Part shown: in pieces, positions 3,001 to 37,000 of the stretch
How positions within the stretch are numbered: position 1 is the stretch's first letter
Layout of the letters: each line of letters starts with the position of its first letter
Origin: a bacterium
Lineage (GTDB): Bacteria > UBA9089 > CG2-30-40-21 > SBAY01
Reading direction: 5' to 3'
Length of the DNA: 63,150 nucleotides
NCBI GenBank assembly: GCA_040755795.1
Contig: JBFLXS010000001.1
Span: 1 to 63,150, forward strand
The notes under the pieces: generated by a model
Told to the model about the DNA's origin: nothing
Seen by the model: the letters and a program-made list of their open reading frames with translations, nothing else
The model's database searches: none
Made by a program: the position numbers and the translations under genes

Positions 3001-4000
3001 GCCAATATTGCATCCCTCCTGGTATTTCACGAAATGCCTTAATCGTTATGATACCATAAGGTTGTGAATTAATCGTAAAGGTAATAGCAAATGTCCCATT
3101 ATAATTTGCTGTTTGCTGTATTATCATCCATGTTGTTCCAAATTCTATCGTTACAGTCCCTTGACGATGATAACCATTACCATAGACCATAATTGGCAAC
3201 CCTACTGTGCCGCTCGTAGCAGTCACATAAACAATGTTATGCGTAATCTTGAAATCTGTATGATATTGAGTCTGGGTAGTTTCCCCAACTGCATTAACCG
3301 TATGTGTGCCATAGCATTGTTCATCAACTGTCCATTGTGTCACAAAACTACCATTACCTGCGGCACTAACATTAGTAATACTCATATTTGTTCCAAACTC
3401 AATACGGATAAGTTCACTACCACCATAACCTGTTCCTTTAACCTCTACTGGAGTCCCAACGGTTCCTGTAAGAGGTGTAATCGTAATTCCTGAGGTAATC
3501 CTGAAGTAATCATAATCATCTGTAATCTGGCCTGTGGCTGTAATAGTAGTTGTCCCCACAGGTTGAGTATCAACCTCAAATTTTGCACTAAAGGTGCCAT
3601 TAGGTCCTACCGTGACAGTAGTAATACTTATGTGTGTTCCAAAATCAATCTGCACAATTTCATTTACCACATAACCACTTCCTGTAATAGTAACCATAGT
3701 CCCTATTTGCCCTGCAGGAGGAGTAACACTTATAATCTCTGCTTTTATAAAGAAAATATTAAATGCCTCTTGGTTGGACATACCTACAAGTGTTCCTCTA
3801 CTTTTTACTGTAGTAGTTCCTGCTGGCTGGGTATTAATAGTGAATATATAAGTAAACTGTCCAATACCATTACATGTAGTTATTATATTAAATTCAGCTG
3901 TAGTTCCAAACTTAATTTTTAGTTCATCCCCTGCATCATAACCATCACCATAAATAGTCACCCAACTTCCTACTGTCCCTTCTGTCGGTGAAACGGTATG
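1..4000 (-). repeat. Super-repeat A, copy 1 (the clearly alignable part of a 5,610-nt, 21-domain unit).
   Basis: It aligns colinearly with 5611-9610. For example, gatgtatagatttttgccataacatagaaga occurs at 1191 and 6801 (offset 5,610). The antisense landmark PVVG at 2343 matches 7953 (offset 5,610). 3167 matches 8771 (offset 5,604, a 6-nt in-frame indel). By eye about 80% nucleotide identity, fading beyond about 4000/9600. Confidence 0.8.
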
Positions 4001-13000: not shown

Positions 13001-16000
13001 AGAATAACCGTTACCTGTTATGGTCACTTGAGTGCCTACAGAACCACTTGTTGGAGATACACTTATAATATTAGGTTTGATTGAGAAGGAGAAGGTACTT
13101 GTTGCCCTTTGTTCAGGACGGAATATACTTATCCCAATTATTGTTGTTGTTCCATAAGGTTGAGTATCTACCGTAAAGGATGTGGTAAATGAACCACTTG
13201 CTTCTGAAGTAAGCGTAGTAATTGTAGAATTAATACCAAACGCAATTCTTAATGCCTCACTCTTACCAAATCCATTACCATAAACTGTTACTTGACTCCC
13301 TACCGTTCCAAAAGTAGGATTAACACCCGTAATCTTAGGTATAATCTTAAAGTAACTAAATGCAGAATGTTGTGTTTGTGTGCCTATTGCCTCTACAGTA
13401 GTAGAACCATAAGGTTGGACATTTACTTTAAAGAAAGTAGTAATTGTTCCTATATTAGATGACTCCAATAACACATCATCAATATAAGGTGTTTGTCCAA
13501 AATGTATCCTTACTAGCTCTGTTGGTCCGAATCCATTTCCTTCTATAGTCACCGTTACACCTACCGTGCCGATTGATGGCGTAACAGAGGTAATATTAGG
13601 TATTATCTTATAGGACTTTGTAGATACTCTTCCACTATTCATCCCTGTAATTGTTACTGTCTTAGTTCCATAAACCTGAGTATTTACCGTAAATGTTGTA
13701 GCAAATGTTCCCACCCCTGAAGTAGAAACAGTAGTAATGCTTTCCGTATTGCCAAAATCTACCTCTATTAATTCACTTTCACCATATCCTGTGCCTTGAA
13801 TAGTTACAAAACTCCCTACTGTTCCCTGCATTGGGATAAACATAGGAATATCTATCTCTATTATAAACAATTTATCTGCTTTATGATTTACTATATCCTG
13901 CAAGCCATAGGCAGTTATCGTCTTTGTTCCATAGAATTGAGTATCTATAGTAAAGGTAGTATTGAATGTGCCACCTGTTGAATTTATAGTCACCAGAGTA
14001 ATAGTTTGCGTCGTTCCAAAATCAATCCTGATTTGTTCATTAGCACCATACCCTGTCCCTTCAACACTTACTATACTCCCCACCGAACCACAAGAAGGTG
14101 TAATAGTTATCTTAGAAGTGATAATGAAGATATTTTCTGCCTTCACTCTTTCTGGATTAGGATCCATCCCTCTAACGAGAACAGTAGTAATTCCATAAGG
14201 TTGTGAACTAACGGTAAACTGAATAGTAAATGTCCCATTTTCTGATGCTAAAGATTGTCCGCTATATGGATGTACTTGTGTATTACCAAAATCCAATCGA
14301 ATGATATCGCTTACTTTATATCCATCACCCATTACAGTAACGCCTGTTCCAACTGTCCCGGTTGGCGGTAAAACAGAAAATACCTTTGGCAAAATCTTGC
14401 AATAATTATACGCTACTACGGTTGAAGTAATACCATACGCCTTTATCGTATGTGTTCCCCATCTCTGCTTATTTATAGTAAAGACAGCGGTAAATGTGCC
14501 AAAGGCATCAGGTGTAGCGGTAGTAATAGTCAATCTCGTTCCAAAATCTATCTGAACTGTTTCGCTTGTCTTATAACCCATACCTCTAACCGTAATAGAT
14601 GTTCCTACTGTCCCTTGCTGTGGTGAAACAAAGAAAATAGTAGGTTTAACCGTAAATGTCCCTGTATCTGATGTTTGTGAAGTAAGACCATAAGCACGAA
14701 TAGTGGTTATACCCTGCGGTTGAGTATCTACCGTAAAGATAGCGGTGAATGTCCCATTGACATTAGCACTTGTGGTAGTAATAGTACGGGTAGTGCCAAA
14801 GTCAATCTGCACAAGCTCACTTTGACCAAATCCATCACCAGTAACAGTTACTAAATCACCTATTGTCCCTGCTGGTGGTACTATTTGAGTAATATGTCCT
14901 ATTATACTGAAGACAGTAGATGTAGCCCTTACATAAGGACGCGAGTAATTAAAAGCAATTATTGTAGTAGTTCCTGCAGGTTGAGGAATGTTAATGACAA
15001 AGGTTACATTTGTAAATGTTCCCCAATCTCCCCCATTAACATACCCTCCTGTTATTAGTGGTATTGTTCCAAAATCAATTTGAATCGAACTAGCACCTGA
15101 CCAGAAACCATCACCACTTATGGTTACTGTTGTTCCTACGGTTCCTTTGGTTGGTGTTACATTATAAATTCTTGGAACTAATGTAAATGAAATGGTTGCA
15201 ACACGATTAGACTCAAGTCCTGTAACAGTAACTATCTTTGGACTGGGATTATAACTTTGATTATCTACGGTAAATGTAGTCGAGAATGAACCATAAGCAT
15301 CTGTTGAGGTCATTGTAATGGTCTTTGTTGTCCCAAAGTCTATTTTAATCGATTCTGACTGTCCAAAACCATTACCCGTTATGGTTATAATAGTAGTAAT
15401 AGGTGTTCTATCAGGGGTAATAAGGGTAATATTAGAAAGTATATCAAATACCTTGAACGCCATCTGACCACTATTTAATCCTTGAGCAGTAATAGTAGTA
15501 GTCCCATATCGTTGTGTATCAATAGTAAATGTAGTTGAGAATGAACCATTGAAACTGGTAGAAGTAAAGGTAATTGTTCGGGTAGTGCCAAAGTGGATAT
15601 GGATTAACTCAGATACCCCAAAACCATTACCTGCAACAGTAATAATCTTACCTACGGTCCCTGATAATGGTTCTACTAACCAGATTGCCGGTAAAATAGT
15701 AAATGTCGCCTCATCTGTTACTACCGTTGGCTGGGTTATATCAATAGCCTTAATAGTAGTAGTCCCGTATAATTGTGTATCTACTGTAAATGTGCAGGTC
15801 CAACTCCCTTCTGCATAAGTAGAGGTTAACTGAATAGTTTTAGTCGTGCCAAAATTAATCTGGATAGTAGTGCTTGCTCCAAACCCGTTACCTCTTACTG
15901 TCACTATCGTCCCTACTGTTGCCTTATCTGGACTAACCAGAATAATATTTGGTTCGATAGTAACTGTGCCATAAGCAGGATACTCAGATATCTGACCTGT

Positions 16001-19000
16001 TGCTTTAATAGTGGTAATACCATAAGGTTGCGTATCTATGGTAAATGTAGTAGTAAATGAACCTATTGAACTTGCGGTTACACTCTTGATACTATAACTA
16101 GTCCCAAAGTCAATCCGTATCCCCTCACTTGCCTCAAATCCATCACCTTCTAATCTCACAATAGTACCCACTGTGCCTGTCTTTGGACTGATTAAAGTAA
16201 TTGCCGTAATTATCTTGAATGAAGAAGCCGCTGTTCCTGCTACAGGACAAATGGCTAAAATAGTTGTAGAACCTAATGGTTGGGTATTCACAGTAAATGT
16301 AGCTGTAAATGTTCCATAGGCATCCGTGGTAACCTGTGTAATATTTGGGGTAGTTCCAAAATCAATCTGGATAGACTGAGTAGCCCTAAATCCACTACCT
16401 CTTACAGTAACAATTGTTCCTACAGGACCTTCAGAAAGTATTACTGAGAAAATATTCGGTTTGAAGAAGAAAATATTTTCTGGAAGTAAATCCGGTAGAC
16501 CAGTCTTAGAACATTTTATCTTAACCGTTGTGGTCCCATAAGGTTGTGCGTTAACCGTAAAGATTATTGTTGTAGAACCTATCGAATCTCCTGTATACGG
16601 TACACCGGTATAATCTTTATTAGTCCCAAAATCAATCCAAATATTGTCTGGAGTATCGTATAATCCATTAGCTGCAATAGTAATAACTGTCCCTACTGTC
16701 CCTGATTTAGGTGTTACCAACCAAACCGCTGGTTCTATCTTAAATGTATAGGTAGCAAATAAGCTTGTATTGAATTTATCCGTTATCTTCACATTCCAGG
16801 TCCCATACGGCTGGGTATTAGCGGTAAATACAGTTGAGAACGAACCATTTACCGCACTCCAGATAGTAACACTCAAAGTCTGCCCAAATTCTATCACTAT
16901 CTCTTTACTTGAACTAAAGCCATTACCCGCCACACTAATCGGTGTACCTACTGTTCCAAAGTCAGGTGTGTATAAAAATACTTTATGGAGAATCTTGCAC
17001 GAGATTGTAGCTGGCCAGGAAGATATAAGTCCTGTAGCCATAACCGTAGTCGTGCCATAAGGTTGAGCATCAATGGTAAATGTGGTGCTGAATGAACCAT
17101 AGGTATTGGCTGTTACTGTAGTTATCGTCTTGTTTGTGCCAAAATCTATCCCCACCAACTCACTGCTACTAAATCCATCACCGGTCAAGGTTACTACTGT
17201 CCCTACCGTTCCTTCTGTCGGCGTGATAGCGGTCAGATGTGTCAAAATACGATAAATATATCGTTCTGAGAAAACACCGCTACTCATACCCACTGCCTTG
17301 ATAGAGGTTGTGCCGTAAGGTTGTGTATTTACGGTGAATTTCACGCTAAAGCTACCCTGAGCATAAGTCGAGGTAGTGACAACCGTTGGTGATGAACCAA
17401 AGATAATATGCACTAACTCACTGGCACCAAAGCCATTACCTCGCACCGTCACAAAACTCCCTACTGTGCCTGAAGTTGGAGTAATGGAGAAGACATACGC
17501 ATTTATCGCTACCGTGCCTTTAGCAAATACCCCTGGTAATCCAAAAGCCTGAATAGTGGTAATCCCACGCGGCTGGGTATCTATTGTAAAGGTAGTAGTG
17601 AAACTACCCTCGGCATAGGTTGATGTCTGTTGAATCGTTGGAGTAATCCCAAAGGCTACACGAATAAGTGTGCTGGCATTAAACCCATTTCCTCTGATAG
17701 TAATGATTGTCCCTACACTTCCTTCGGTAGGACTGATATAAATAATATTCGGCAGGATAGTAAATGTGCCTTCTTTATTTGCAGAACCACTTGAAGCCTT
17801 AATGGTGGTTATTCCCCAGCTCTGTGTATCTACCGTAAAGGTAGTTGAGAAACTACCTTCTGCATAAGTTGATGTCAGACGAATATCTGTTTTGTTGCCA
17901 AAGTTGATACTAATAGTTGTCGAAGCCTCAAATCCATTGCCAGTAATGGTAATGGTTGTTCCCACCGTTCCTTCTGTCGGCGTAATCAAGGTAATATTAG
18001 GCAGGATAGTAAATGTGCCAGAAGCATCTTCACTACCGTGTGCCTTAATTGTCTTCACAGAGTATGGTTGAGTATCTACCGTAAATGTGGTTGTCCAGCT
18101 ACCTTCTGCATAAGTAGAAGTAGATTGAATACTTGCAGTTCTCCCAAAATCTATCCAGATGGCCTTTGATGCCCCAAAACCATTACCTCTCAAGGTAACT
18201 ATTGTTCCCACTGTCCCTGTCTTTGGACTAATCTGAATAATGTTTGGCGTAATTGCAATCGTGCCACAATCAGACTCATCGCCATGAGCAACAACCGTAG
18301 TTATGCCAAAAGGCTGGGTATCAATGGTAAATGTGGTGGTGAACGACCCACACCCTTCACTGGAAACCTGTTGAATGGTGATGGTGGTGCCAAAATCTAT
18401 CTTGATTGTCTTTGAAGCACCATAACCATTACCGCTGATAGTGATAATCGTTCCTACCGTTCCTTCAATTGGTGATAAATAAATAATCCTTGATTTAATA
18501 AAGAATGTCTTTTCTGCCTGGGTGACAGTTCCATAGCCAGTAACAGTTGTGCTACCATAGGGCTGGGTATCAATAGTAAAGGTGGTGGTGAAACTACCCT
18601 CGATAGATGTCTGTGTAGTCTGGATAGTTGGGCTTCTACCAAATCCTATACAAATATCTTCATTTGCCTTAAACCCATCACCTCTAACCGTAACTACAAT
18701 TCCAACCGTTCCTTCAGATGGCGTAACATAAACAATATTAGGTTTAATTAATACCTCAAGGTTCTCTGCCCCAAATCCTGATGAGCACCCGGTTGCTTTG
18801 ACAGTGGTCGAACCATACGGTTGGGTATCAATGGTAAATGTTGTTGTCCAGCTACCTTCTGCAACCGCAGAGACTACAGTAATCGTTTGTTTTGAACCAA
18901 AATCTATTCTCACTAATTCATTTGCCTGATACCCACCACCGCGCAAGGTTACGATTGTCCCAACCGTGCCTTGCATTGGAGTAACTGAAACCAATCCTGG

Positions 19001-22000
19001 CGTAATACGGAAGGTAACTGTAGCTACCTGTTGCCATGTAAATATACCCACCGCAGTAATCGTTGTTGTCCCTAAACTTTGAGTATCAATGGTAAATGTA
19101 GTGGTAAATGACCCATAGGCTTCAGTTGAAATAATGGTAATAGTCTTTGTATTGCCAAAGTGGATGTGTATCCCTTCAGTTGCCCCAAAACCATTACCGC
19201 TAACCGTAACTATACTTCCTACCGTCCCGGATAGTGGGGTAACCAATATAATATTTGGTTTAATGGTAAAGCTATTTGTCGCACTTACTAACTCACCATC
19301 TATCGTCTCAAAAGCAGTAATAGTTGTAGTTCCGTAAGGTTGTGTAGTAATAGTAAAGGTGGTAGTGAAGGAACCGTAGGCAGTTGTAGATACTGTTCTC
19401 AGATTAAGTGTTGTGCCAAAATCAAGTTGCACCGTAGTAGCACTTCCGTAACCATTACCCCTAACCGTAACAATTGTCCCTACTGTTCCCTCTGTAGGTG
19501 TAACCGCAAAGATAGCCGGCAGTATCTTGAATACCTTAGTTGCTACTTCTGGCAATCTACCCCGACCGGTAATTGTAGTTGTCCCAAACCGTTGTGTATT
19601 AATGGTAAAGATAACCGTAAAGCTACCACTTATATTCGCTGATACCTGAACAATGGTAGGTGTAGTGCCAAATGTTATGCTCACCGTTTCAGAAGATGAG
19701 AATCCGGTTGCTTTTATCGTAACAACTGTTCCCACTGTGCCTGAAGTAGGTGTTAATAACCAAATTTCAGGCAGAATATAGAAAGTACTTGTTGCCCTAT
19801 TGCCATATCCCTGTCCATATTCAATTGCTACGATAGTCGTAGTTCCTGCTGGTTGCGTATCAATAGTAAAACTCCGTGTGAATGTTCCATTAATCGTAGT
19901 CGTTGTTGTAGGGGCATTAGTTTCATCGGTCATAGTCGTGCCAAAGGTAACAAATATATTTGTAGTTGCCAGGAATCCATCACCAAGGACCGTTATCAGT
20001 GTTCCCACTGTTCCTCTGGTGGGAGTTACTAAGCAAATATTGGGTAATATGGTAAATGTCTGTGTTCCTATCTGATTATTAGATAATGTTCCTGTGCCTA
20101 CGATTAATTTACCATCTCTTGTCTGGGCATTAACTGTAAACACACCGGTCAATGTCCCCCTTAATTCACCTGCGGTTATGGTTGCAATATTTTGAGTGCT
20201 ACCAAAACTTATTTGAACCTTATCATTTTTAGCATAACCATTGCCATAAAGTGTAACAATAGTCCCTACCGTTCCTTGAGTAGGTGAAACTTGATATAAT
20301 TTAGCCACGATACAGAAGGTATTGGTAGCCGCACGATGTTCTGTTGGAGCATTCTGTCCCACCACCACAATAGTCGGAGTCCCATAAGCCTGGGTATCTA
20401 CCGTAAATGTAGTATCAAATGAACCATTCCCTGAAGAAGTAGTCCAGCCAATACTCGTATACATACCAAATTCTATCTTAATTAGTTCACTGGCACCATA
20501 ACCATTCCCTTTCACTGTTACTTGTGAACCAACTGTCCCAGAAGTAGGTTGTATTTCAGTAATATTTGAAATAATATTAAATGTCCCAAAGGCTGAATCT
20601 GAAATAGGCGGAGTCCAAACGGTAATAGTTGTTATTCCATACGGTTGAGCATCAATCTTAAATACAGATGTAAATGTCCCCTCTCCAGTAGTATCTACTC
20701 CACTTTCTATAGAAATAGTTCTGTGATTACCAAAGTCAATCTGTATCCCCATTATAGGTCCATATCCTGTCCCACTTACTGTTACCGAAATTCCCACTGT
20801 CCCAAAGGGAGGTGAAACAAGTATAATATTAGGCATAATCTTAAACTTACCCACATCTTGTCGCTGAGTTCTTATACCATATACTCTGACCGTATGAGTG
20901 CCATAATATTGAGTATTTACTGTCCAGGTAGTTGAAAATGTTCCGTTTTCACTGGTAGTTACCTGTGTAATAGTAGAGGTATCTCCAAAATCAATCTGTA
21001 TTAATTCACTGCCACCATATCCATCACCTGTCACAGTAACTAAACTACCCACTGTCCCAAATGTAGGAGTAACTGAAGTAATATGGACATCTATACGGAA
21101 TTCCCAATTATCCTTCACAGAACTATGTCCTGATGAATCTATGGCAGTAATACTCTTTGTCCCAAAAACCTGAGTATCCACTGTCCAGGTAGTAGAGAAA
21201 CTCCCTTCTGCATAGGTTGAGGTAGTAGTTATTGTTTGATTAGCACCAAAGATAATACGAACTAATCCTGTAGATTCATAACCATTACCTCTAATAGTAA
21301 CAATAGAACCTACTGTCCCACAAAGTGGAGTAACATTAGTTACATTGGCTAATATAGTAAAGGTTCCATAAGAATTATTCTCACCAAGATCAGGCGTATA
21401 TCCATCTTTATGTCCTACTGCTTGAATAGTCGTTATTCCATACGGCTGGGTATTAATCTGAAAATCAAACATAAAGCTACCTGAAGAAGTAGTAGTAGTT
21501 CCAGGAGGAATATTTAATGTCTTGCCAAAATAAATGTAAATGTTAGAAAGAGGAGAATAATAACCATTACCATATACGGTTACCAAACTACCCACTGTCC
21601 CTTGAGCAGGTGTAACTAAAGTAAGTTTATGGGTTATCTTAAATGATGTATCTGTAGCAGTGGCATTAGATAGCACTCCTACGACTAAAATAGTGGTTAT
21701 ACCCCAGGGTTGTGTATCTACAGTAAATGTAGTCGTCCATGAACCGGCTGACTCGGCACTAATGATAGTAATTGTCGGATTTGTTCCAAAGGCTATCCGA
21801 ATTAATTCTGATGCCTGGTAACCAATACCTCTTATCGTTACCATTGACCCAACTGTCCCTTCTTTTGGTGTAACTAAAACAATACTTGTCTTGACATAGA
21901 AAGATGCGATGGCAAAGGTAATCCTATCAGTAGCCGTAATCGTATTAGAACCATAAGGTTGTGTATCTACTGTAAAGATGCAGGTAAATGTTCCCAGACT

Positions 22001-25000
22001 ACTACTACTTACGGTCATAATAGTCTTAGTTGTTCCAAAATCTATCTGAATCAATTCTGATGCACTAAAACCATTACCAGTAATAGTAACTCCTGTACCT
22101 ATTGTTCCATCCGATGGATATACTGAAGTAATTTTACCAATAATACCAAATATATTTTCTGCTAATTGTGTAGCTTCAGATATTGATTGAACAGTAATAG
22201 TAGTAGTCCCTGCTGATTGGGTTAAAATAGTAAATACAGCACTAAATGTACCTGCAAGAGAAGGATTGTCCTTATAAATTACAATTCTATTATAGGTAGG
22301 CTCAAAACCAGGCAATGCCGCTGATATTGGAATTGTCCGCAGGTTACCAAAATGAATAACTAATTTATTATCTGCCGTAGCTAAAGGATTACTCTTTCTA
22401 TATCCATCACCCCAAATAGTAACCACACTTCCAATCGTCCCTGATGTAGGGCTTACCTGCCATATTCTTGGAATTATGCAGAAGGTTTGAGTATGTGCCG
22501 CCCCTGACATATCCGAAGTAATAATAATATGTTGCGTCCCAAAAAGTTGAGTATCTGCTGTAAAGGTAACTGAAAAACTACCGCAGGCATCTGTTGAAGT
22601 CTGACTAATAGTAGAAGTTGTTCCAAATTTTATATAAATACCTTCAGTTTGTGCAAAACCGTTACCCGTAATGGTAATCAAAGTACTCACTATGCCACTG
22701 GTAGGTGTAGAAAGTGTAATATCTGATTTAATAAAGAATGTAGAAGTCGCTATTTTACCGCTATTCAAACCAGTGACAACAATAGTCGTTGCACCATAGG
22801 GTTGAGTATCAATACTAAAGGTAGTTGAAAATGACCCGGAGGGAGTCGTCGTAGCATACGATACCGTCTGCGTGGTACCAAACTTAATATGTATCTGTTC
22901 GGTAATTCCAAATCCTGTCCCAATTATAGTAACTTTTGTATTTACAGTCCCGGTATCAGGTGTAACTAAATGAATATTAGGTAAGAGATTATAAGTGCCT
23001 GTATTTTCTACTACTGAACAACTCAAATCTTGTGCCTTAATCGTCTTAATACCATAAGGTTGGGTATTAACCGTAAAGGTAGTGCTAAATGAACCTTGTG
23101 CCGCAGAGGTAATGGTAGTAATAGAAGGAGTTGTCCCAAAATGAATATAGATAAGGTGTGTCGCCCCAAACCCATTCCCGGCTACGGTAACAATACTACC
23201 TACTGTCCCGGAAGTTGGAGTAATCGAGAAGATATTTGGTTGGATAACAAATATCCTTTCTTCTGCAGAGATATTCGATTTAATATCCGTAGCCTTAACA
23301 GTCGTGCTACCATAAGGTTGAGTATTAATAGTAAAGGTTGTAGTAAATGACCCGGTGAAAGATGCACTCGCAGTAGTAATAGTATTTGTAGTTCCAAACT
23401 TTATTCGCACCCGCTCATTAGCAGTAAATCCAGAACCTTGTATAGTAACTATTGTCCCTACTGAACCTCTCGTTGGCGTTATATCTACTATATATGGAAT
23501 TATCCTAAAGAATATCGTTTGTGTTCCTACTGGAGTAGATGCGATAGCAAGGATAGTTGCAGTTCCTAACGGCTGTGTATCTACGGTAAAGGTAATGGTG
23601 AAACTACCTAATATATCTGTTGAGGTAAGAACTATACTGGGAGTCGTCCCAAAATCAATCTGAATATTCTTTGTTGCCTCATAACCATCACCATATAATG
23701 TTACTACCATCCCTACAGAACCTTCAGTAGGTGTAACCCAGGTATGTGGTTTAATGACGAATTTCTCTTCGGCAAAGATAAGAGTTTGACTGGCTATTAC
23801 ACTTATAGTTCCATAAGGTTGAGTTTCTAACTTATGTATCTGGTCCGCCGGAAAACTACCATCAGAATTCATTAAAAATGCATCAGCATAATAAGAAGTT
23901 ATACCTAAAACAATCCAACTTACTTGACCACCACCAAATCCATTACCATTTACAGTAATCATCCTTCCAATTGTTCCTTCAGTTGGCGTAACTAAGAATA
24001 GATGTGGCAGGATACCAAAGCTACTTGTAGCCTCGATATTTGAATCTGTTGTATCCCTGGCAGTAATAGTAAATGTCCCAAACGGCTGAATCGGTGCTGT
24101 AAATGTCGTTGAGAATGAACCATAAGCAGTCACCGAATTTGTTCCTAACTCTATAGTTTGTGGATTATTGTTTATACTCACCCCTGCCCAGGTTATCTGC
24201 ACATAACTCCCTGTCCCAAAGCCATTACCCGCAACAGTAACTATCGTCCCTACCGTCCCTTGTGCTGGAGTTACTTGATAGATATTGGGCAGAATAGTAA
24301 ATGGCCTTGATGTTGAGATAGGATTGCCCTGATATGCTGTCACTGTCGTTGTCCCGTAAGGTTGGGTATCTACGGTAAATGTGGTTGAGAAACTACCTTC
24401 GGCATAGGTTGAGGTCAGGGTCAAAGTCGGTGTTGTGCCAAAGATAATGCGGATGGATTGACTTGCACCATAGCCATTACCAGCAATAGTAACGATACTC
24501 CCTACTGTGCCTGATGTTGGTGTCAATGCAATAATCGTCTGCAATATCCTCACTGTCAGGTTATCTGCCACCCCTTGTGAACTACAACCTGTTGCCCGGA
24601 CAGTTGTCGTGCCGTACGGTTGCGTATCAATCGTAAATGTCGTGGTAAAGCTACCTTGAGAATCAGCCGAAACCGTAGTAATACTTATCGTCCTACCAAA
24701 ATCAACCCTGACTAATTCATTTTCTTTGTAACCAATACCGCGTAAAGTAACAATTGTGCCTACCGTCCCTTCGCTGGGCGTAACTGAGTCTAACTGCGGG
24801 CTAATGACAAAGTAGGTTTGTGTAGCGGCTTGCGTCTGCATACCAACCGCTAAGACAGTCGTTGTCCCCAGTGGTTGAGTATTTACCGTGAATGTGGTTG
24901 AGAACGACCCAAAGGCAGTTGAAGTAACTTTTGTAATCGTCCTGGTAGTGCCAAATAGTATATGTATTGACTCACTTGCCCCGTAGCCATTACCAGAAAC

Positions 25001-28000
25001 CGTAACAATCCGCCCTATTGTTCCACTCATTGGGATGGGAGCAAATATCTGCGGCAATATCTTAAATGTCCTGGTAGCAGAGTCTAATCTGCCATATCCG
25101 GTAATCGTGGTAGTACCGTAAGGTTGGGTATTGATAGTAAATCTTGTGCTGAAACTACCATTGACATTGGCGGAAACCTGAGTAATAGTTGGTGTTGTGC
25201 CAAATGCTATCCTCACCGTCTCAGATGATGAATATCCGGTTGCCTCAATAGTGATTATCGTGCCTACCGTTCCCTGAAGTGGACTTACAAACCAGATTTG
25301 AGGTAGGATGTAGAAGGTACTTGTTGCCCTCCCACCAAGACCTGTAGGATATTCAATCGCTACTATAGTCCTCGTCCCTGCGGGTTGAGTATCAACAGTA
25401 AAGTATTTTGTAAATTCCCCTGAAATGGTAGTCGTCCCGCGTAGATCTATGTCGTCATAACTTGTTCTACTTGTTCCAAAGGTAACATAAATCTCTACTG
25501 ATGCTCTATATCCATTGCCTTGAATAGTTATTCTTGTCCCAACCGTTCCAGTATTAGGTGATACTGAATAGACATTAGGTAAAATCCTGAATGTTTGTGT
25601 TCCTATCTGATGAGATATAGTTCCTGTCCCAACCACTAATTTATCATCAGGCACATCTCTTGGTTGTGTATTAACCGTAAATACACCTGTTAATGTCCCT
25701 GTTAATCCATTTGCAGTTAAAGTAGCAATATTTTGAGTGCTACCAAAACTTATCTGAACTGGCTCAGCTTTAGCATAACCATTCCCATAAAGTGTAACCT
25801 TAGTTCCTACCGTCCCTGCAGTAGGTGAAATTTGATATAATTTGGCGGTGATACAGAAATCGGTGGTATTAGTGGCACGATGTTCTGCTGGAAGATTAGT
25901 GCCTATAGCAACAATAGTAGTTGAACCATACGCCTGTGTATCAACAGTAAATGTCCCTACAAATGAACCATCTGCCAAAGATGTTATTACCCCAATACTC
26001 GTATGCATACCAAATTGTATTGTAATTGGTTCAGTCGCACCATAACCATCTCCTTTAACTGTTACTTGTGACCCAACTGTCCCATAATTAGGAGTAACCT
26101 CTCTAATTCTTGAGGTAATGGCAAAAGTCCCTATAGATGATACAGGATTATTAACACCTCTTGCTGTTATTGTAGTGATTCCATAAGGTTGAGTGGTAAT
26201 GACAAAGGTAAGAGTAAAACTACCCTTATTATCTGTATTCGGGTCAAAAGGTTCTGTAACTACTGTTCTTTGTGTCCCAAAATCAATCTTTATTCTCTCT
26301 AAACCGTCAGGATAACCATTACCTTTTACTGTTATGGTAGTCCCGACTGTGCCTTTTTGAGGACTAATGTAGATAATATTAGGCATAATCTTAAACTCAT
26401 CTGTATCTTCCCGCTGTTTATTTATGCCATACGCCCTAACCGTATGAGTTCCATAATGTTGAGTATCTACTGTCCATGTAATTGAAAATGTCCCTCTGCC
26501 ACTGGTACTTATTTGAGTAATAGTCGCGGTACTTCCAAAATCAATCTGAATTAATTCACTTCCACCATATCCATCACCGGTTACAGTAACCAAACTTCCA
26601 ACTGTCCCTGATTTAGGAGTAACTAAAGTAATATGAACATCTATTCTATATGTCCCCTCTACCTCTGCATGATGTCCTGATGTATCTACCGCAGTTATTG
26701 TCTTGGTACCAAAACTCTGTGTATCTACGGTAAATGTAGTTGCGAAACTACCCATAGGACTTGCAGTTATAGTTGTAATAGTCAAATTATTCCCAAATTC
26801 TATTCTTACACTCTGACTTGCTCCAAATCCCTCACCTGTAATAGTAACAAAAGAACCTACTGTACCGAATAATGGCGTAAGGCTACTTATATTAGCTAAT
26901 ATAGTAAATGTCCCATAAGAATTTGGTCCTATTAAATGACCCAAAACATCATTTTTACCACGAGCCTGAACAGTAATTATCCCATAAGGTTGAGTATCAA
27001 CAGTAAAGGTAATGGCAAATGTCCCCATTCCATTAGAATTACCTGTAACAATTGGAGATGAGTCAGAATCTTTATTCCCAAAACCAATCCGCATATCACA
27101 GGTCGGATAATAACCATTACCAAACACCGTTACCCGACTCCCTACTGTTCCAGAAAGAGGTGAAACAATAGTAAGTTTATGAGTTATCGTAAATGTAGCT
27201 GTAGCAGTGGCATTAGAATTCATCCCCACAGCAAGAATAGTAGTATTACCATACGGTTGAGTATCTATGGTAAAGGTAGTAGTGAAACTCCCTTCTGCTA
27301 CTGCACTAACAGTAGTAATAGTATTATTATTACCAAAGGCTATCCGAATTAATTCTGATGCCTGATACCCTACGCCTCGAATAGTAACAATAGTTCCCAC
27401 AGTTCCTGTCTGTGGTGAAGGAGCTGTAATACTTGTCTTAATATAGAAAGAAGCCGTAGCAGAGGCAATTCTACCTTGAGCAATAATAGTAGTTGCACCT
27501 ACCGGTTGAGTATCTACTGTAAAGGTACAACTAAATGTCCCAACATTACTACTACTTACTGTGGCTATAGTCCTGGTTGTCCCAAAATCTATCCTGATTA
27601 ACTCTGAGGCACTAAATCCATCACCCGTAACTGTTACTACCCAACCTACAGTTCCATCTTGAGGATTAACAAAGGTAATATTACCCGTAATAACAAATAT
27701 ATTTTCGCTATATTCCTTCTCTGCCCTGTATGATTGCACAGCAACCGTAGTTGTGCCTGCTGGTTGAGGTGAAGTAATGGTAAAGATAGCAGTAAATGTT
27801 CCAGAATCAGATGGATTTATCATCCCAGACACCAATCCCAGCGGTTCTGCCGCAGAAATGGTAATTGTTCTAATTGTTCCAAAATGAATGACTAAATAAT
27901 TCGGATTCGGCCAAACTTGCTTACTATATCCATCTCCTCGTATAGTTACTACCGTACCTATACTTCCCCAGGTAGGACTTACATAATGTATTCGCGGTAA

Positions 28001-31000
28001 CACCATAAACTTTCTTGTAAATGATTGACTAAAGGTTAATCCTTTAATCGTAATGGTATGTGTGCCATAAATCTGGGTATCAACACTAAAGGTAAGTGTC
28101 CATGACCCACAAGTCTCTGCTGAAACCTGTGCAATAGTTGTCGTCCTGCCAAAATCTATAGAGATTGTCTCAGATGTCCCAAAACCATTACCTCGTATAG
28201 TTATACAGGTATTTTCTATTACCCCAGTAGTGGGTGTAAGTAAAATAATATCAGGCTCAATAAAGAATGTAGAAGTCGCTACTTTACCACTACTCAAACC
28301 ACCTGCCACAATAGTTGTTGCACCATAAGGTTGAGTATCAATGGTAAAGGTAGTCGTCCATGACCCGGAGATAGTTGTCGTAGCATACGATACCGTCTGC
28401 GTGGTACCAAACTTAATATGTATCTGTTCGGTAATTCCAAATCCTGTCCCAATTATAGTCACCCTTGTATTAACACTGCCATTATCAGGTGTAACTGAAT
28501 GAATATTAGGTAAAAGATTATAAGTACCTGTATTTTCTACTACTGAACAACTCAAATCTTGTGCCTTAATCGTCTTAATACCATAGGGTTGTGTATTAAC
28601 CGTAAAGGTAGTGCTAAATGAACCCTGTGCCGCAGAGGTAATGGTAGTAATAGAAGGAGTGTTCCCAAAATGAATATAGATAAGGTGTGTCGCCCCAAAC
28701 CCATTCCCGGCTACAGTAACAATACTACCTACTGTCCCTGAAGTCGGTGTAATTGAGAAAATAGCTGGTTGGATAACAAATATCTTTACCTCTGCAGAGG
28801 TATTCGATTTAATATCCGTAGCCCTCACCGTCGTGCTACCATAAGGTTGAGTATTAACAGTAAAGGTTGTCGTAAATGACCCTATGGAAGATGCACTCAC
28901 AGTAGTTATAGTATTGGTATTCCCAAAACTTATCCTGACTTTTTCATTGGCAGTAAATCCAGAACCTGTAATAGTAATTACACTGCCTACTGTGCCAAAG
29001 GAAGGAGTAACTTCCACTATCTGAGGTATGATATCAAAGAACGCAGTAGTTGTCCCTGCCTCTAAATCTATTGCCAGAATAGTAACGCTTCCTAATGGTT
29101 GAGTATCCACGGTAAAACTAATAGTAAAACTACCATAATCATTAGTAGTAGCAAGAGTTATACTCTGAGTTGTCCCAAAATCAATCTGAATACTCCTTGT
29201 TGCCCTATAACCATTACCAAATACCGTCACCTGACTACCTACTGTCCCTGATAAAGGATTCACACCTGTAATATTTGGTAGAATAGAGAATGTACTGGTA
29301 GCATATAAACCAGTCGTCTGGGTTGCCATTACAGTTACAGTCCCATAAGGTTGACTCCTTATATTATTACTCCAAACATTTTGGAAACTGCCGTCTGATT
29401 GCATCGCAACTCCTTCCGTTACAGGATTATACAAGACAATTCCAATCTTAACATTAGCAGAATAATTACCATCAAATCCATTCCCATTGATACTAATAGT
29501 TGTTCCGATTGTCCCTCTTGTTGGAGTAACTAAGAATAGATATGGGAAGATAGTAAAGCTCCGGGTAGCACAAACACCTGAAATACTGGTATCTGTTGCC
29601 ATAACGATGTGACTTCCCCGTACTTGAACGGGTGCGGTAAAGGTAGTGGAGAATGAGCCAAAGGGACTAACAGGAGTTGTAGTGCGGTAGATTGTGCCAA
29701 AGTCTATATTGACACCAATACTTCCTGTCCCAAACCCATTACCTGCAATAGTAATTACTGTCCCAACAGAACCCTGATTAGGTGTTAATTCAATAAGATT
29801 AGGCAAAATAGTAAATGTTGCCTCTCGTGAAATAGGATTACCTTGATAAGCAATAACCGTCGTTAGACCGTAAGGTTGGGTATTAACAGTAAATGTGGTT
29901 GAGAATGACCCATTGGCATAAGTTGAAGTAGTATGCAATGTAGGTGTTGTGCCAAAGATAATGCGGATTGATTGTGTCGCACCATAACCATTACCCACTA
30001 TGGTAACTATAGAACCAACTGTGCCTGATGTAGGTGTAAATAAAACAATGTTTGGTAATATCCTGATACTCAGGTTATCTGCCCAAAGACCTGAGGCAAT
30101 CCCTCTGGCCTTAATCGTGGTTGTCCCATAAGGTTGAGTATCAATGGTAAATGTCGTCGTCCAACTACCATCAATCGTAGCAGATACCGTAGTAATCGTT
30201 CGCGTCGTTCCAAAATCTATCTGCACTAATTCTGATGCCTGATACCCAACTCCGCGCAAGGTGACGACGGTCCCTACCGTTCCTTCACTTGGAGTGATTG
30301 AGTCAAGTTGTGGTTTAATCACAAATAAGTTAGAGGCAGATGCCCCTGTTCTTGTGCCTACCGCAACAATCGTTGTTGTCCCCAAAGATTGCGTATCTAC
30401 TGTCCATGTAGTTGAGAACGACCCAAAAGCAGTAGAAAGTGTCCGGGTAATAGTGGGTGTTGTCCCAAATTGAATACAAATCCACTCGGTTGCTCCATAA
30501 CCATTACCATAAACAGCTACTACCTGACCTACTGTCCCGGATGCAAGCACAGGTTCAAAGACCTGCGGCAGTATCTTGAATGTATTAGTCGCTGGCTCTA
30601 ATTTGCCATAACCGGTAATCGTAGTAGAACCATACGGTTGTGTATCAACAGTAAATGTAACCGTAAATGTTCCATCAGCATAGGTTGAGACAGTAGTAAT
30701 GGTTCTTGTCGTCCCAAAATCTATCCTGACCGACTCTGTGCCACCAAACCCATCTGCCTTAATGGTTACTACTGTCCCTACTGTTCCTGAAGTTGGACTA
30801 ACAGAATAAATATGTGACAGGATATAGAATGTTGTTTCCTTCTCATTCACCTCACCATCTTCCTCGGCAATAATAGTTGTAGTTCCTTGCGGTTGACTAT
30901 CCACTGTATAATTATAGACAAAATTACCACTTAAAGTAGTAACAGTAGCCTTATCTCCACCTGCTATCCGTTTCGTACCAAAAGATATCAATATATTGAC

Positions 31001-34000
31001 TGAAGGGTTATATCCTGTTCCAATAATACTTATTAATGTTCCTACACTACCTCGTGATGGAGTAACCCAGAGATTAGGTTGAATAATAAACTGTCTATTT
31101 ATATCTTGTTGTTCAAAGGCAGAATCATTAACCGCGATAATCGTTGTCGTGCCATATTTTTGAGTATCTACGGTAAATGTTATGGTAAATGTCCCTGTTG
31201 AACTGGTAGTAACCTGGGTAATCGTCCTTGCCGTCCCAAATTCTATCCGCACCTGGACACTGGCACCATAACCATCACCGGTAACCGTTACAAGAATACC
31301 TACTGTGCCTGTGGTAGGCGTAATTTGAGTGATATTTGAGGTGATATTGAATGTTCCGCTATGCGGTTCCTTTGAAGTATTACCATAGGCAGTAATAGTA
31401 GTAATCCCGTAAGGTTGAGTATTAACAGTAAATGTGGCTGAAAAAGTGCCCTTACTCGTAGCAGTCGAATAGGTAATCGTAGTTAATTTACCAAATAGAA
31501 TCTGAATTCCTTCATTCATCCCATAGCCATTACCATAGATAGTCACTATCGTGCCTACATTACCAAATTGAGGTGTTACTTGATAGATATTCCCAAGAAC
31601 CTTAAAATATGCTAATGCAGATTCATTAGGTGGATATGGATTAGATGCCGTTATAGTAGTTGTCCCATAAGGTTCTTGATTAATGAGTGCAATTTGATCG
31701 CTAAAAGTTCCGTCTATTGTAGTTGTTCCACTAATTGAAATTTGATAAGTAGAACCAAAATATATACTTATATATGCTCCTCCTGAATAACCATTACCGC
31801 TTATAGTTACCGTAGTCCCAATTGAACCTGAACTTGGGGTTAACTCAATAATATTAGGAGAGATAGTAAATGTGCCTTCATCATAACTTGAGTTTCTACC
31901 AGAGGCAACAATTGTCTTTTGCCCAACACTTTGTGTATCAACTGTAAAGGTAATGGTAAATGTCCCTTTATTATGAGCAGAGGTAGTAGTTATAGTATTG
32001 GATTTACCAAAATCTATACGAATATCATCTAACTCTCCATAACCAGTTCCTTTAATCGTAACTATTGTGCCGACACTACCGGTGGTTGGAGATAAAAAGA
32101 TAATGTCGGGTATTATCTTAAATTCTGCAGTACTTGACCCATCACGACTAAGTCCGGTAGCTAAAACAGTCTTACTCCCATAAGTCTGAGTATCAATAGT
32201 AAAAGTAACATTAAACTTAGCATATACATTATCCGTCGTAGCCAGAGCAATGCTTCTGGTAACACCAAAGTCAATTCTGACCTCTTCACTGGCACCATAG
32301 CCATGCCCTTCTACCGTAACTATAAATCCAACTGTTCCATAAACAGCTGGCTGAACGATAATATTTGGTTGCAGGATAAAGTAATCAATATCTGTTATAT
32401 AGGTATAACCTAAATTTGTGGCTTTAATCGTGACCGTCCCCATAGGATAATCAATCATCGTCATATTTGGAGAGACAAAGAGATCATAAGAAATCGTAAA
32501 ACTTCCCCCTCCACTACTCATAATAAATCCTCTACCTGGTCCATTATCACCAAAATCAATTCTTACATCACAAGTTGCACGAAATCCATTTCCCATAACC
32601 GTCATCTTAGTTCCTACTGTTCCAGAAGATGGTGAAACTAATGTTATATTAGGTAAAATCTTAAAATTACCATATGCCATAGTATTAGAATTACTACCAA
32701 TAGCTTTAATCTGTGTATCTCCATAAGGTTGGGTATCAATACTAAACATAGAGGTAAATGCACCTGCCGCGTCTGTACTAACCATAGTAATAGTCTTATT
32801 AGTTCCAAATAAGATAGAGACCATTTCTGTAGAGCCATAACCATCCCCACGCACCGTAACAAGAGTTCCAACAATTCCTTCTGGAGGTGAAATTAAAGTA
32901 AGTTGTCCAACTATGCAGTAGAATGATATATCCGTAGCACCTGTCGATGAGCCAATAGCAGTAATGGTGACACTACCGTATGTTTGTGCGATAACCGTGA
33001 ACACCCCGGTAAATTGTCCTTTCTCATTGGTAGTAGTAGTAGTTACGGTTGTATCTTTACCAAAAATAATATGGACTTCCTCAGAACTTCCATAACCATT
33101 TCCTGTCACGGTCACTATCTTTCCTACTGAACCTTGTGATGGATTTACGGAAGTTATCTTCCCTAAAATAAAGAATGTCCATCTATTATCTTCCTTGCCA
33201 TAAAGTTGTCCTTCAACATAGACAGTCTTTGTTCCATAAGGTTGGGTATCGACTGCAAATGTAGTTGAAAATGTTCCATCACCACTTGCAGGAATAGTTA
33301 TTGTCAAACCAACCCCAAATACAATCCTTATCTCCTCACCATTTCCAAACCCATCACCTCGAACATTAACACTACTTCCTACTATCCCTCGTATTGGAGT
33401 TACCTCTACTACCTGAACTAATATCTTAAATTCTTTATTAGCAAATTTATTCAAATCATTAAATTGAATGCCCGTAACTGTCTTACTCCCATAATGTTGT
33501 GTATCAACAGTAAAGGTAAGGGTAAATGTGCCATCGCTATTAGTTGATATTTGGGTAATAGTGGGTGTTTTACCAAAGGCAATCCGAATACCCGTTGTGG
33601 CATCAAATCCAGTACCAATAACGGTAATTATTGTCCCAACTGTTCCTGATATAGGTGTAATAATAATCTCAGGAATAATCTTAAAGGAGGTTAATAAACT
33701 TGAAGTTGCTCGTTCTTGAGAGGTTAGACCAACGGCTATAATAGTGGTTGTTCCATAAGGTTGAGAATTTATCGTAAAGGTAACTGCAAATGTCCCCATA
33801 TCTGTAGAAGTAACAGTAGTTATAGTCATTGTTGTTCCAAAATGAATATGCACACTCTCTGAAGCATCAAATCCATTACCTTTTACTATTACCGAAACCC
33901 CAACTGTTCCTGTCTGAGGATAAAGATATATAATTTCACCTTTAATATAGAAATAATTATCTATTGCATCACCCCCATCAAAATCCGTTGCTCCAACAGT

Positions 34001-37000
34001 TGTAATCCCCGCCGGTTGGATATCAACTGTAAATGTATAACTAAATGTCCCATTTATATTTGGTAGAGGTCTTGAATATTGTGACGCTAAATGAATTACT
34101 TTCCCAAATTTAATCTCAACTTCTTTTGAGACACTAAATCCATTACCTTCTATTGTCACCCAGCTACCTACTGTGCCAGATGAAGGAGTAACTAAAATAA
34201 CTTTTGGTATAATCCTGAATAATCTATAACTATATGTATCATATTCTATCTCAGTAACACTAGTGGTAGCTACTTGTGATGTTCTGGTTCCTCTAGCAGT
34301 AATGGTGGTGATAAAATTCCAGGCTTGGGTATCTACTGTAAATGCTACCTGGAATTTACCCCTATAATCTGTTGAACTAAAGGCAATAGTTGGATGAGTG
34401 CCAAAATTTACCTCAATATTTTCTGTCTTACCAAAGCCATTGCCATATACCGTAATCAATGTGCCAACACTACCTTTGTTTGGCGAAACTCGATAAATAG
34501 CCGGGACAATAGTAAATGTCCCTCTACTCTCCGCTCCTGTATTTACATCTCTGGCAACAACCGTAGTTCTCCCATAAGGTTGGGTATCTACGGTAAATGT
34601 AACCGAGAAACTACCACCAAACTCACTGGCAGTAGTAGCGGTAATAGTCATCGTCGTGCCAAATTGTATTTCTACACGGCCATTAAGACTATAACCACTA
34701 CCATTCACCGTGACCATAGTTCCAACACTGCCGGTAACGGGTGTAATTGAATCAATCACCGCTAAGACACCAAAGTGCTTGACCGCTTCTGTCCTACTTG
34801 TTTGACCAATAGCAGTAATAGTTCTCGTTCCAGACTGGGTATCAACCGTAAAGGTAGTAGTAAATGAACCATACCAATTTGAAAATGTCGTAGTAATAGT
34901 CTTTGTCGTGCCAAAATGAACATAAATTTCCTCTGAGACATAATAACCATTACCATGAATAGTGATGATAGTTCCAACGGTTGCCTGTTGTGGCGTGACC
35001 CACTCTACTTGCGGGTTGATTTTAAACAGGAAGAAAGAATCTACATCATTAGCACTATGTGGTGCATCTCCATATCCTGTAGTAGTTGTTGTTCCCCAGG
35101 GTTGAGTATCAACACTAAATGTCGCAGAGAAGGTACCTGATAAATTAGTTGATGTAACAGCCACGGTAGTAACTCTACCAAACTTTATCCGAATCGTCTC
35201 TGTAGCTTTATATCCTGTCCCTCGAACGGTTACTACCGACCCCACCGTGCCACTACCTGGCTCTACCCAAAGATTAGAAGTAATACGCAAACTACTGGTA
35301 GCAGGAAGTTTTAAGGTAAAACCATAAACTACTATTGTTGTACTACCATAAGGTTGCTCATCTATATTAAACTTAGGTCTAATATTTCCATTATTATCAT
35401 ATACCTGGTCAAAATCAGTTATCGTAATTGATATTGTCGTTCCAAAATCTATCTTTAGTTTCTCATTTAGAGCAAACCCATTTCCCCAAACCTGTATTGA
35501 CTGTCCAACTGTCCCTGTGTCAGGATCTACCATGGTAATATTAGGCAGAATAAAGAAGCTGCTCCCTGTCGCTATCTGTGTAGTATAACTTATAATAATC
35601 ACCGTTGTTGTTCCACCTGGTTGATTTTCAACATTAAATTCTATAGTAAAAGACCCATGTTGAGTAAATGTATCACCATGATTTTGAGTAGCAGTAGTAC
35701 CAAACTTAATCTGAATATTCCCATTGGCAGGATAACCATCCCCATGTATAGTAATAGTACTGCCTACTGTCCCTCGCCCAGGATTTATAAAGACAATATG
35801 TGGTAAAATCTTCAAACTATTGGTTGCTTGTTCATAGGAACTTAATCCTATTGCAACTATTGTCGTAGTTCCATACGGCTGAGTGTCAATGGTAAATTTG
35901 ACTGTAAATGACCCTTCTGCTACCGAACTAACAGTAGTAATAGTAGGATTACTACCGAATTTAATGTGAATCAATTCTGATGCTTTATAACCATTACCTC
36001 GAACCGTGATAATACTACCTACCGTTCCTTCTTGTGGCATTACCTCAACAATATTTGCTTTGATATTAAAGAATTCATCATCCTGTATATTGTCAGTTTC
36101 ATAGGCAATAATAGTCGTAGTCCCTGCCGGTTGTGTAGTTACGGTAAAGGTAGCATAAATTATTCCTGCATTACCTTGTGCTGTTACCCAGGTAATTGAT
36201 AAAGTAATCCCAAAATGAATAGTAACAGTAGCTCCTCCATCATATCCAGCACCATCTACTTCTACTAAGCTACCAACCGTGCCAGAGGTAGGCGAAATCC
36301 ATCTAATACCTGCCTTTGTTAAGAAATAGTAAATTGCTAAAGTCTGAGTCTGACTACCGGTAGCCACAATGGTCTGAGTACCAGCTGACAGAGGGACTGT
36401 AAATATCGCTGTAAATGTTCCCCATGCATTTGAGATAGATGTTGTTATCGTAGGATAAGTTCCAAAATCTATCCTTATGTTTTCAGTGGCACCAAATCCT
36501 GTTCCTGATAGCACTATCGTAGTCCCTTGAGGACCTTCAAATGGGATAGGTAAAACAGGTATAAGGTTAGCTTTTATCCTGAGACTATTAATTGTCCCAT
36601 ATTGAGAATTCTGACCGGTAGCGATAATAGTAGTCGTTCCATATTTTTGGCTATTAATCGTAAATGTAACAGTAAATGAACCTTCAACTTCAGAGCTAAC
36701 AAATGTGATAGATAAGGTAAGCCCAAAATCTATCCTTATCTTTTCCTGTCTCCCATAACCATTACCAGAGACTGTAACTTTACTTCCTACTGTCCCCTCG
36801 GCTGGTGTAACCAAAAATACCTTTGGTAGGATAGAAAAAACGGTATTCGTAGATTGTTCACTATTAGCACCTTTACCAACAATAGTAGTTATCCCATAGG
36901 GTTGTGTGTCTATCGTAAATGTAAGTGTAAATGAACCATTGCCATTTACCGTCTTAGTGGCAATATTATTATTAGTCCCAAATTTAATCGTTATTGTTTG

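Follow-up and report, generated by a model that had tools for sequence, protein, structure and literature searches.

The A-band part of titin is organized in super-repeats of 7 and 11 immunoglobulin (Ig) and fibronectin type III (FN3) domains, and these super-repeats match the thick filament. In bacteria, MpIBP of Marinomonas primoryensis contains about 120 repeats (PDB 5irb). It is documented that repeats commonly grow by duplication, within an array, of blocks that comprise several domains, the 7-domain unit of nebulin being the classic case, and it was proposed that multi-domain duplication is favoured by selection against misfolding between similar neighbours (PMC1553488). Two other bacterial giant adhesins are SiiE of Salmonella, with 5,559 amino acids (aa), and a Mobiluncus adhesin of 7,651 aa which comprises 51 Ig-like domains (PMC10619420). 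In Omnitrophota, giant proteins of the 'tandem-repeat scaffold' type were described, whose repeats are old and diverged (10.1101/2023.11.21.568195; 10.64898/2026.06.07.730766). Here we analyse a stretch of 63,150 nucleotides (nt), hereafter called the window, which corresponds to positions 1 to 63,150 of contig JBFLXS010000001.1 (assembly GCA_040755795.1; GTDB lineage Bacteria; UBA9089; CG2-30-40-21; SBAY01). The window is the interior of a single gene of more than 63 kb, which runs past both window ends. A first reading, made from the letters alone and called below the sequence-only reading, had noticed long repeated units in it and a difference of one domain between them. We find it probable, with good confidence, that the gene specifies a string of rigidly linked Ig-like domains, likely an extracellular filament, and that its C-terminal half grew by duplication of a block of about 21 domains, in events that are now old.

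Results

One reading frame and 221 tandem domains

In a six-frame translation, one minus-strand frame proceeds without any stop over the whole window, i.e. over 21,049 codons; the other five frames contain 866-2,799 stops, and no complete open reading frame (ORF) of at least 150 aa was found elsewhere in the window. Codons are counted from the N-terminal side, the top base of codon i (from 0) being at 63148-3i. A hidden Markov model, built iteratively from one repeat of ~88 aa, recognized 221 back-to-back domains of ~86 aa, which account for 19,438 of the 21,049 residues. The array was then re-segmented in structural phase into domains S1-S220, each of which starts at the motif xVTPxxGTVG. The product is rich in Thr, Gly, Ile, Ser and Val, with 18.7% of Thr and 0.36% of Cys. 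A scan against Rfam gave no match. Tandem Repeats Finder (TRF) reported only an array with a 255-nt period at 4833-5445, the super-repeat units being too long and too diverged for this program.

A super-repeat of 21 domains

Alignment of the window to itself by BLASTN paired 19446-25318 with 24981-30832 over 5,974 columns, with 70.5% identity, and a second high-scoring segment pair (HSP) joined 18786-19221 to 24585-25017, at an offset of 5,799/5,796 nt. At the level of domains there are two successive units, A and B (Table 1), in which all 21 of 21 domains are paired, with a domain-level alignment score of 108.6 and identities of ~69% in nt and 65% in aa. For 23 consecutive domains the best match is located exactly 21 domains away (mean aa identity of 0.65 versus a background of 0.42), and the signal at this offset reaches a windowed z of 18.8, with single-pair z values up to 11.9. 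Since random non-cognate domain pairs show only 51 ± 4% nt and 41 ± 6% aa identity, the self-alignment and the matches at 21 domains establish that the copies noticed in the sequence-only reading are real. The offsets given there are also exact: S114 and S135 differ by 5,529 nt, and S128 and S150 by 5,799 nt. The order of the copies has to be inverted, because the gene is on the minus strand and plus-strand coordinates run backwards along it; what had been called copy 1 is the C-terminal-most copy. Between A and B, the offset drifts from 5,502 to 5,550 nt via many in-frame indels of 3-24 nt. On the N-terminal side, S104 shows an identity of 0.51 with S125 (z of 3.8), and S103 and the domains preceding it give no signal; the similarity at offset 21 extends no further N-terminally than S104.

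The C-terminal half of the array is filled by at least 5.5 in-register units, of 21, 21, 28, 21 and 21 domains (A to E), the last of them being followed by the start of unit F. In a double-centred matrix of domain identities, if short offsets inside homogeneous sub-arrays are excepted, significant diagonals occur only at offsets of 21, 28, 42, 49, 70 and 91 domains, and this is the pattern predicted by units of such lengths. Since all these offsets are multiples of 7, a sub-period of 7 domains was considered; it was rejected, because no signal exists at offset 7 or 14 inside the units, and the multiples of 7 are explained by unit lengths of 21 and 28. When the 10 possible pairs of units were compared at the 15 best-behaved positions, the mean z was 1.0-6.5 in register, versus -0.7 to 0.6 in registers shifted by 1-3 domains. 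Cognate domains are 0.45-0.68 identical, as against 0.43 for adjacent domains. The array thus displays what characterizes a super-repeat, namely a fixed order of subtypes, a constant period (21 in four of the five units) and a higher similarity between cognates than between neighbours.

The grouping of units implied by the identities is ((A,B),C,(D,E)). For the D/E pair, self-BLASTN aligned 500-3949 with 6101-9556 at 76% identity, and the mean D-E identity is 0.66. The sequence-only reading had assigned this pair to a first family and the A/B copies to a second one. The second family is not a separate one, all five-plus units of the C-terminal half being homologous in register, and A/B and D/E are the youngest two of the duplications that arose in a single ancestral super-repeat. 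A weaker and more diverged unit had also been suspected at about 12.3-18.5 kb, and this corresponds to unit C: over 15 domain pairs, its in-register mean z against A or B is 1.5-1.6, compared to -0.1 to 0.4 after a shift of 1-3 domains. Among the likenesses offered as examples of this relationship, that of 12300-12560 (S175) stands at the 97.8th-99.8th percentile, whereas that of 12850, at the 52nd-84th percentile, is not significant. Unit C has seven domains more than A or B, which are S148, about S151-153, S155-156 and S159.

A difference of one whole domain

The change of offset next to the C-terminal-most copy had been interpreted as the clean gain or loss of one domain of 270 nt (90 codons). 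At this junction the offset does jump, from 5,532-5,535 to 5,796-5,799 nt. Alignment had been set beforehand as the check on this point, and a three-way MAFFT alignment of the protein sequences at the junctions gave one block, with a single gap of 87 residues that ends exactly between domains. What was gained or lost is thus one whole domain, S148, with the frame kept, but its size is 261 nt (87 codons); the figure of 270 nt arose because a net 9 nt of unrelated small in-frame indels was added to the domain. The count of four domains at 18.8-19.8 kb agrees with ours (S147, of type a; S148, the extra one; S149, of type b; S150, of type c), and the notion of frame-preserving steps holds more widely, every other length difference between A and B being a multiple of 3 as well. 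The partner of S127 is S149 rather than S148 (aa identity of 0.62 versus 0.49), in agreement with the HSP at offset 5,796/5,799, which spans S150 and nearly all of S149.

Against every candidate donor, the number of synonymous substitutions per synonymous site (dS) of S148 is at least 1.1 or saturated, and its nearest relatives in the protein are 60-62% identical in aa. For these two reasons the event is ancient, and S148 is not a recent local duplicate. The a and c types are separated by two domains in units C, E and F, but by one in A and B; these counts are explained by a single event on the branch parting (A,B) from the other units. Loss on the stem of A and B is as likely as gain in copy 1, because E and F also carry two domains between a and c, and the polarity depends on the position of the root.

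Age, selection and a conversion tract

Codon alignment of the cognate domains of A and B gave dS values of 0.5-2.1, with ratios of nonsynonymous to synonymous rates (dN/dS) of 0.13-0.53. These values show that the A/B duplication is old, with synonymous sites near saturation, and that every domain position has been under purifying selection; D/E, the other comparatively young duplication, is old on the same ground. A tract of ~740 nt stands out, with dS of 0.18-0.22, compared to 0.5-1.7 elsewhere, and exact matches of 83, 59 and 52 nt, in units which are otherwise ~68% identical. Because dS is low there while dN/dS is unchanged, the tract indicates gene conversion and not tighter constraint. 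It is the only recent exchange, and the only plausible present-day substrate for homologous recombination between A and B in the region; such recombination would change the length by exactly 5,529 nt (1,843 codons), as a gain or as a loss.

Domain family and fold

When residues 11001-16000 were compared to Pfam, the IPT/TIG family (PF01833) was matched with an E-value of 5.6e-94 and 308.7 bits, for a cut-off of 20.9, with five individually significant stretches; it was the sole significant family on this 5,000-aa piece. TIG was also the top family among 109 three-domain pieces scanned singly, 21 of which matched (best E-value of 6.2e-14). Because the family is matched overall, yet many single domains score nothing, the domains constitute a divergent branch of IPT/TIG. 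An AlphaFold model of S147-S149, for which the window's own domains served as alignment, has a predicted local distance difference test score (pLDDT) of 96.5 and a predicted template-modelling score (pTM) of 0.87; it consists of three all-beta sandwiches, of 6-7 strands each, joined with essentially no linker. Comparison of this model to the PDB with Foldseek gave 278 matches at E≤1e-3. The best matches listed are all tandem beta-sandwich arrays (Ig-like, fibronectin-type or macroglobulin), with the 1.5-MDa MpIBP adhesin of Marinomonas at the top, and then complement/macroglobulin MG arrays, ICAM, invasin, Bap and an S-layer protein. Model and matches agree with the seven-stranded Ig-like beta-sandwich fold that defines IPT/TIG domains. 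A profile search of 1.84 billion representative proteins found 11,328 with this domain type; among the best 150 of them, the longest has 7,284 aa and a different architecture.

Relatives and conservation of domain order

With unit A as a query, 116 proteins were retrieved. The top ~40 are nearly all 'partial' hypothetical proteins from genomes of Candidatus Desantisbacteria or from metagenome-assembled genomes (MAGs) of an unclassified 'bacterium', and each of them typically fills a contig of 3-9 kb. Dozens of such proteins, made of the same domain, are present in public Desantisbacteria assemblies. Partial ORFs occupying a whole contig are what is left of giant repetitive genes once short-read assembly has broken them up. 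The gene of the window would probably belong to Candidatus Desantisbacteria or to a close relative. No close relative was found in genome contigs with the N-terminal region as a query, nor in metagenome and viral contigs with unit A. In a Desantisbacteria contig of 23.5 kb (JACQYP010000058.1), 15,961 nt form one open frame, in which two genes were called, of 5,854 and 1,987 aa and 20 nt apart; Desantisbacteria genomes thus probably contain fragmented and under-annotated giant genes. A 63-domain stretch of this contig is neither colinear with the window nor built on a 21-domain period.

The order of domains was compared by a domain-level Smith-Waterman procedure, with shuffled domain order as the null (maximum of 7.9-8.7). 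For relative P0005, 22 domains aligned without any gap to S185-S206 (score of 22.7); for P0001, 36 domains aligned to S50-S88 (score of 20.4), and P0010 and P0025 both aligned to S206-S218 (score of 14.5). Cognates are ~45-55% identical across genomes, versus a background of 36%. Domain order is thus specific to position and is kept from one genome to another, and over that timescale gains or losses of whole domains are rare.

A few further observations concern the relatives. P0001 appears to be devoid of S56, S59 and S60, in a homogeneous patch of the array, which hints at species differences in whole-domain number at this place. Inspection by eye suggests that P0001 holds a repeated block of ~4 domains, and that P0005 and P0015 have long near-identical N- and C-terminal segments. 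Block duplication seems to be a trait of the family. Smaller proteins with the same domain, encoded in related genomes (P0024, P0041, P0043), have a signal peptide and a sorting domain of the type IX secretion system (T9SS; PF18962), an association that is suggestive only.

Table 1. Features of the 63,150-nt window (domains S1-S220 numbered from the N-terminal side)
Feature	Position	Strand	Remarks
Giant ORF fragment	1..63150	-	0 stops in frame; open at both window ends
Region N-terminal to the Ig-like array	58217..63148 (aa 1-1644)	-	~14 repeats of ~100 aa, motif GLxFxLKVxVxDELG
Domains S1-S103 of the tandem Ig-like (divergent IPT/TIG) array	31070..58114	-	no 21-domain periodicity; includes homogeneous sub-array S50-S63
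Domain S104	30806..31069	-	of the domain type that ends the unit; cognates are S125 and S146
Super-repeat unit A, S105-S125 (21 domains, 1,838 aa)	25292..30805	-	self-BLASTN and domain alignment
Conversion tract, unit-A arm (end of S112 through S114)	28229..28969	-	paired with 22700..23440
Super-repeat unit B, S126-S146 (21 domains, 1,844 aa)	19760..25291	-	colinear with A, no domain-level gap
Conversion tract, unit-B arm (end of S133 through S135)	22700..23440	-	~92% nt identity at fixed offset 5,529
Super-repeat unit C, S147-S174 (28 domains), diverged copy	12545..19759	-	in-register domain comparison
Extra whole domain S148 (aa 14548-14634; 87 codons, 261 nt)	19247..19507	-	in unit C, flanked by types a and b; absent from A and B
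Super-repeat unit D, S175-S195 (21 domains)	6806..12544	-	in-register domain comparison
Super-repeat unit E, S196-S216 (21 domains)	1196..6805	-	in-register domain comparison
Start of unit F, S217-S220	176..1195	-	in-register domain comparison; cut by window end

Other features of the window

The repeats which precede the Ig-like array are of two alternating subtypes, 'YWAD' and 'GYIAG', and are outside the super-repeat. Over these 1,644 aa, there is no match in Pfam or NCBIfam, MG4 being sub-threshold with an E-value of 0.003, and a search of 5.8 billion proteins gave no homologue at E≤1e-5. AlphaFold modelled these repeats as all-beta, with low confidence (pLDDT of 58.7). At the N-terminal window edge lies a near-identical direct repeat, 62747-62886 / 63012-63150 (97.9% over 140 nt, offset of 264), which duplicates an 88-aa segment starting with 'KYSFAMAAGSYVYTVTVSCYLPTSTTAPTISGNELSAVTSEV'. 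It is far younger than the other repeats of the window and may extend past its end.

Inside the TIG array, three patches are unusually homogeneous: 41540-45160 (S50-S63), 17489-18730 (S151-S155) and 4508-5773 (S200-S204). Domains of these patches are 55-75% identical in aa, both within and between patches, despite a separation of up to 39 kb. TRF detects the 4508-5773 patch alone. Local amplification of single domains, or conversion between patches, could account for this homogeneity.

Discussion

How the array may have grown

The C-terminal half would be the result of repeated tandem duplication of a block of ~21 domains (~5.5 kb), by unequal homologous recombination between units that were already in register. 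Because crossing-over takes place between in-register units, the period of 21 would be self-propagated, and the two independent 21-domain duplications (A/B and D/E) are the outcome expected from in-register unequal crossing-over between pre-existing units. Whole domains were also gained or lost, seven of them in unit C including the one at the a/b junction, with the frame always kept, and many loop indels of 3-24 nt occurred. Each domain position has since been held by purifying selection, and the only recent exchange is the conversion of ~0.74 kb between A and B. Duplication by blocks would lengthen the rod while near-identical domains stay 21 positions apart, and not adjacent to each other; adjacent domains average 43% identity.

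As for the product, analogy with fibrillar adhesins makes an extracellular filament or stalk of that kind most likely. The absence of linkers between tandem Ig-like domains, the confident inter-domain geometry and the Thr-rich, Cys-poor composition all point to an extracellular rod. With 221 consecutive domains, almost no linker and a pTM of 0.87 for three domains, the array looks as expected of a fibrillar-adhesin stalk. We estimate that, at ~4 nm per Ig-like domain, the array of the window would measure ~0.9 μm.

Some of our results weigh against this picture of a TIG-type filament enlarged by blocks. For the stretch S89-S183, in which A, B and C lie, no public fragment was judged to exceed the shuffled-order null in colinearity, the best score being 9.2 for a null maximum of 7.9-8.7. 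Pfam gave no TIG match on the short pieces S147-S150, S126-S128 and S134-S135. Nothing was found in the PDB with phmmer, and a profile search of the same database brought one weak match only (E-value of 0.003), to residues 499-536 of a cyclodextrin glucanotransferase chain, so that no close solved relative was found by sequence with either method; these residues presumably fall in the IPT/TIG-type domain of that enzyme. In the window, which covers the interior of the gene, we saw neither a signal peptide or secretion signal nor an anchor or an adhesive tip, and the proposed filament function rests on fold, composition and analogy.

Other explanations

The sequence-only reading had concluded that copy number evidently changes, by unequal recombination or replication slippage. 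Taken to its end, this view supposes that the array is currently unstable, with frequent changes in the number of units or domains and a population polymorphic in length. There are indeed one whole-domain difference and many in-frame indels, and the 740-nt tract, with its identity of 92% and exact matches of up to 83 nt, is a substrate for recombination between A and B. However, the units are only 57-79% identical in nt outside the tract, with dS of 0.5-2.1, and S148 is no closer than 60-62% in aa to any domain, with synonymous sites saturated (dS of at least 1.1 where a value could be given). Moreover, A and B have undergone no domain-level indel since their split, and a stretch of 22 domains is free of gaps between this genome and another one. 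We see no sign of ongoing change in these figures and judge present instability to be unlikely. As to the mechanisms which had been put forward, unequal homologous recombination is the natural cause, whereas replication slippage is implausible because the 261-nt units are only ~55-58% identical to their neighbours. An artefact of assembly, by collapse, expansion or chimerism of repeats, would be a more trivial source of the units and of the one-domain difference, and the short-read assemblies of relatives do break in this kind of gene. But the copies differ at ~30% of nucleotides, so that assemblers cannot confuse them, only the 740-nt tract being similar enough to mislead short reads; furthermore, no stop interrupts the frame over 63 kb or at any of the junctions, and the substitutions between copies carry the signature of purifying selection. 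An artefact is therefore extremely improbable.

The period itself could have another origin than crossing-over between units. If the filament were apposed to a partner of periodic structure (a lattice, a sheath or a helical polymer, for example), the length of the unit would be functional and selection would keep it at 21 domains. It would be in line with this idea that four of the five units have exactly 21 domains, that the order of subtypes is conserved in other genomes, that dN/dS is below 1 at every position and that the high pTM suggests a fixed inter-domain geometry. Yet in-register unequal crossing-over reproduces an existing period without selection, unit C has 28 domains, the 103 N-terminal domains have no such period, and no partner is known; we are thus quite doubtful about a selected period. 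One may speculate further, by analogy with titin, that the protein is a micrometre-scale ruler or track, of at least 221 domains and ~0.9 μm, whose 21-domain super-repeat, with its order conserved across Desantisbacteria genomes, would match the repeat of a surface partner. This we regard as a long shot; if it were true, the register of titin with the thick filament would have a counterpart in prokaryotes, among which no longer tandem Ig-domain polypeptide would be known. Growth by duplication of in-register blocks, in contrast, accounts for a self-propagated period without a partner.

Significance and comparison with known systems

A block repeat with a whole-domain indel is an ordinary footprint of the growth of domain arrays and calls for no new mechanism; it is the size of the gene that is remarkable. 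What is documented here is a candidate-phylum gene that exceeds 63 kb and encodes no fewer than 221 Ig-like domains. Literature searches for Desantisbacteria, by that name alone or together with 'giant', brought only papers on other subjects, to judge from titles and abstracts, and no published description of such a gene in Desantisbacteria was found. Domain order in such a giant protein is specific to position and conserved between genomes, and the domains are not interchangeable. The gene also accounts for the shattering of public Desantisbacteria assemblies at this locus. Finally, the 740-nt conversion tract is pinpointed as the one place where units may be gained or lost at present, which makes a concrete prediction for long-read population data.

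The scaffold proteins of Omnitrophota resemble the present case in that a gene of more than 60 kb from a candidate phylum encodes one dominant domain family and is fragmented by short-read assembly. They differ from it in the phylum, which is Desantisbacteria-like here, and in the domain, which is IPT/TIG-like here and not TSP3, dockerin, WD or HEAT; moreover, no 21-domain super-repeat is reported in 10.1101/2023.11.21.568195 or 10.64898/2026.06.07.730766. When 'Desantisbacteria' was searched for, the former was not among the full-text matches, and no occurrence was found in the latter.

The bacterial giant adhesins (MpIBP, SiiE and the Mobiluncus protein) share with our array the rod of many tandem Ig-like domains, the Thr-rich and Cys-poor composition and a size far above that of any other protein of the genome context. 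The extenders of MpIBP are near-identical, whereas the domains are here ~42% identical and position-specific, and their number, at least 221, is several-fold higher than in these three adhesins. No RTX or type I secretion system (T1SS) signal, calcium-binding motif, isopeptide or ester cross-link motif or ligand-binding tip was seen within the window, the gene ends being outside of it; in Pfam, no RTX or retention-module match was obtained in 11,644 aa scanned whole, nor in the 109 three-domain pieces, the true termini again lying outside the window.

As in titin and nebulin, we find a long array of ~90-aa beta-sandwich domains, in which subtypes are in a fixed order and cognates are closer than neighbours, and which appears to have grown from within, several domains being duplicated at a time. 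There are differences: the present gene is bacterial and intron-free, it uses one domain family and not a mixture of Ig and FN3, no periodic binding partner is known and no sequence relationship to titin exists, and its unit of 21 domains is far longer. In spite of these differences, the super-repeats of titin are the closest architectural analogue of the array described here.

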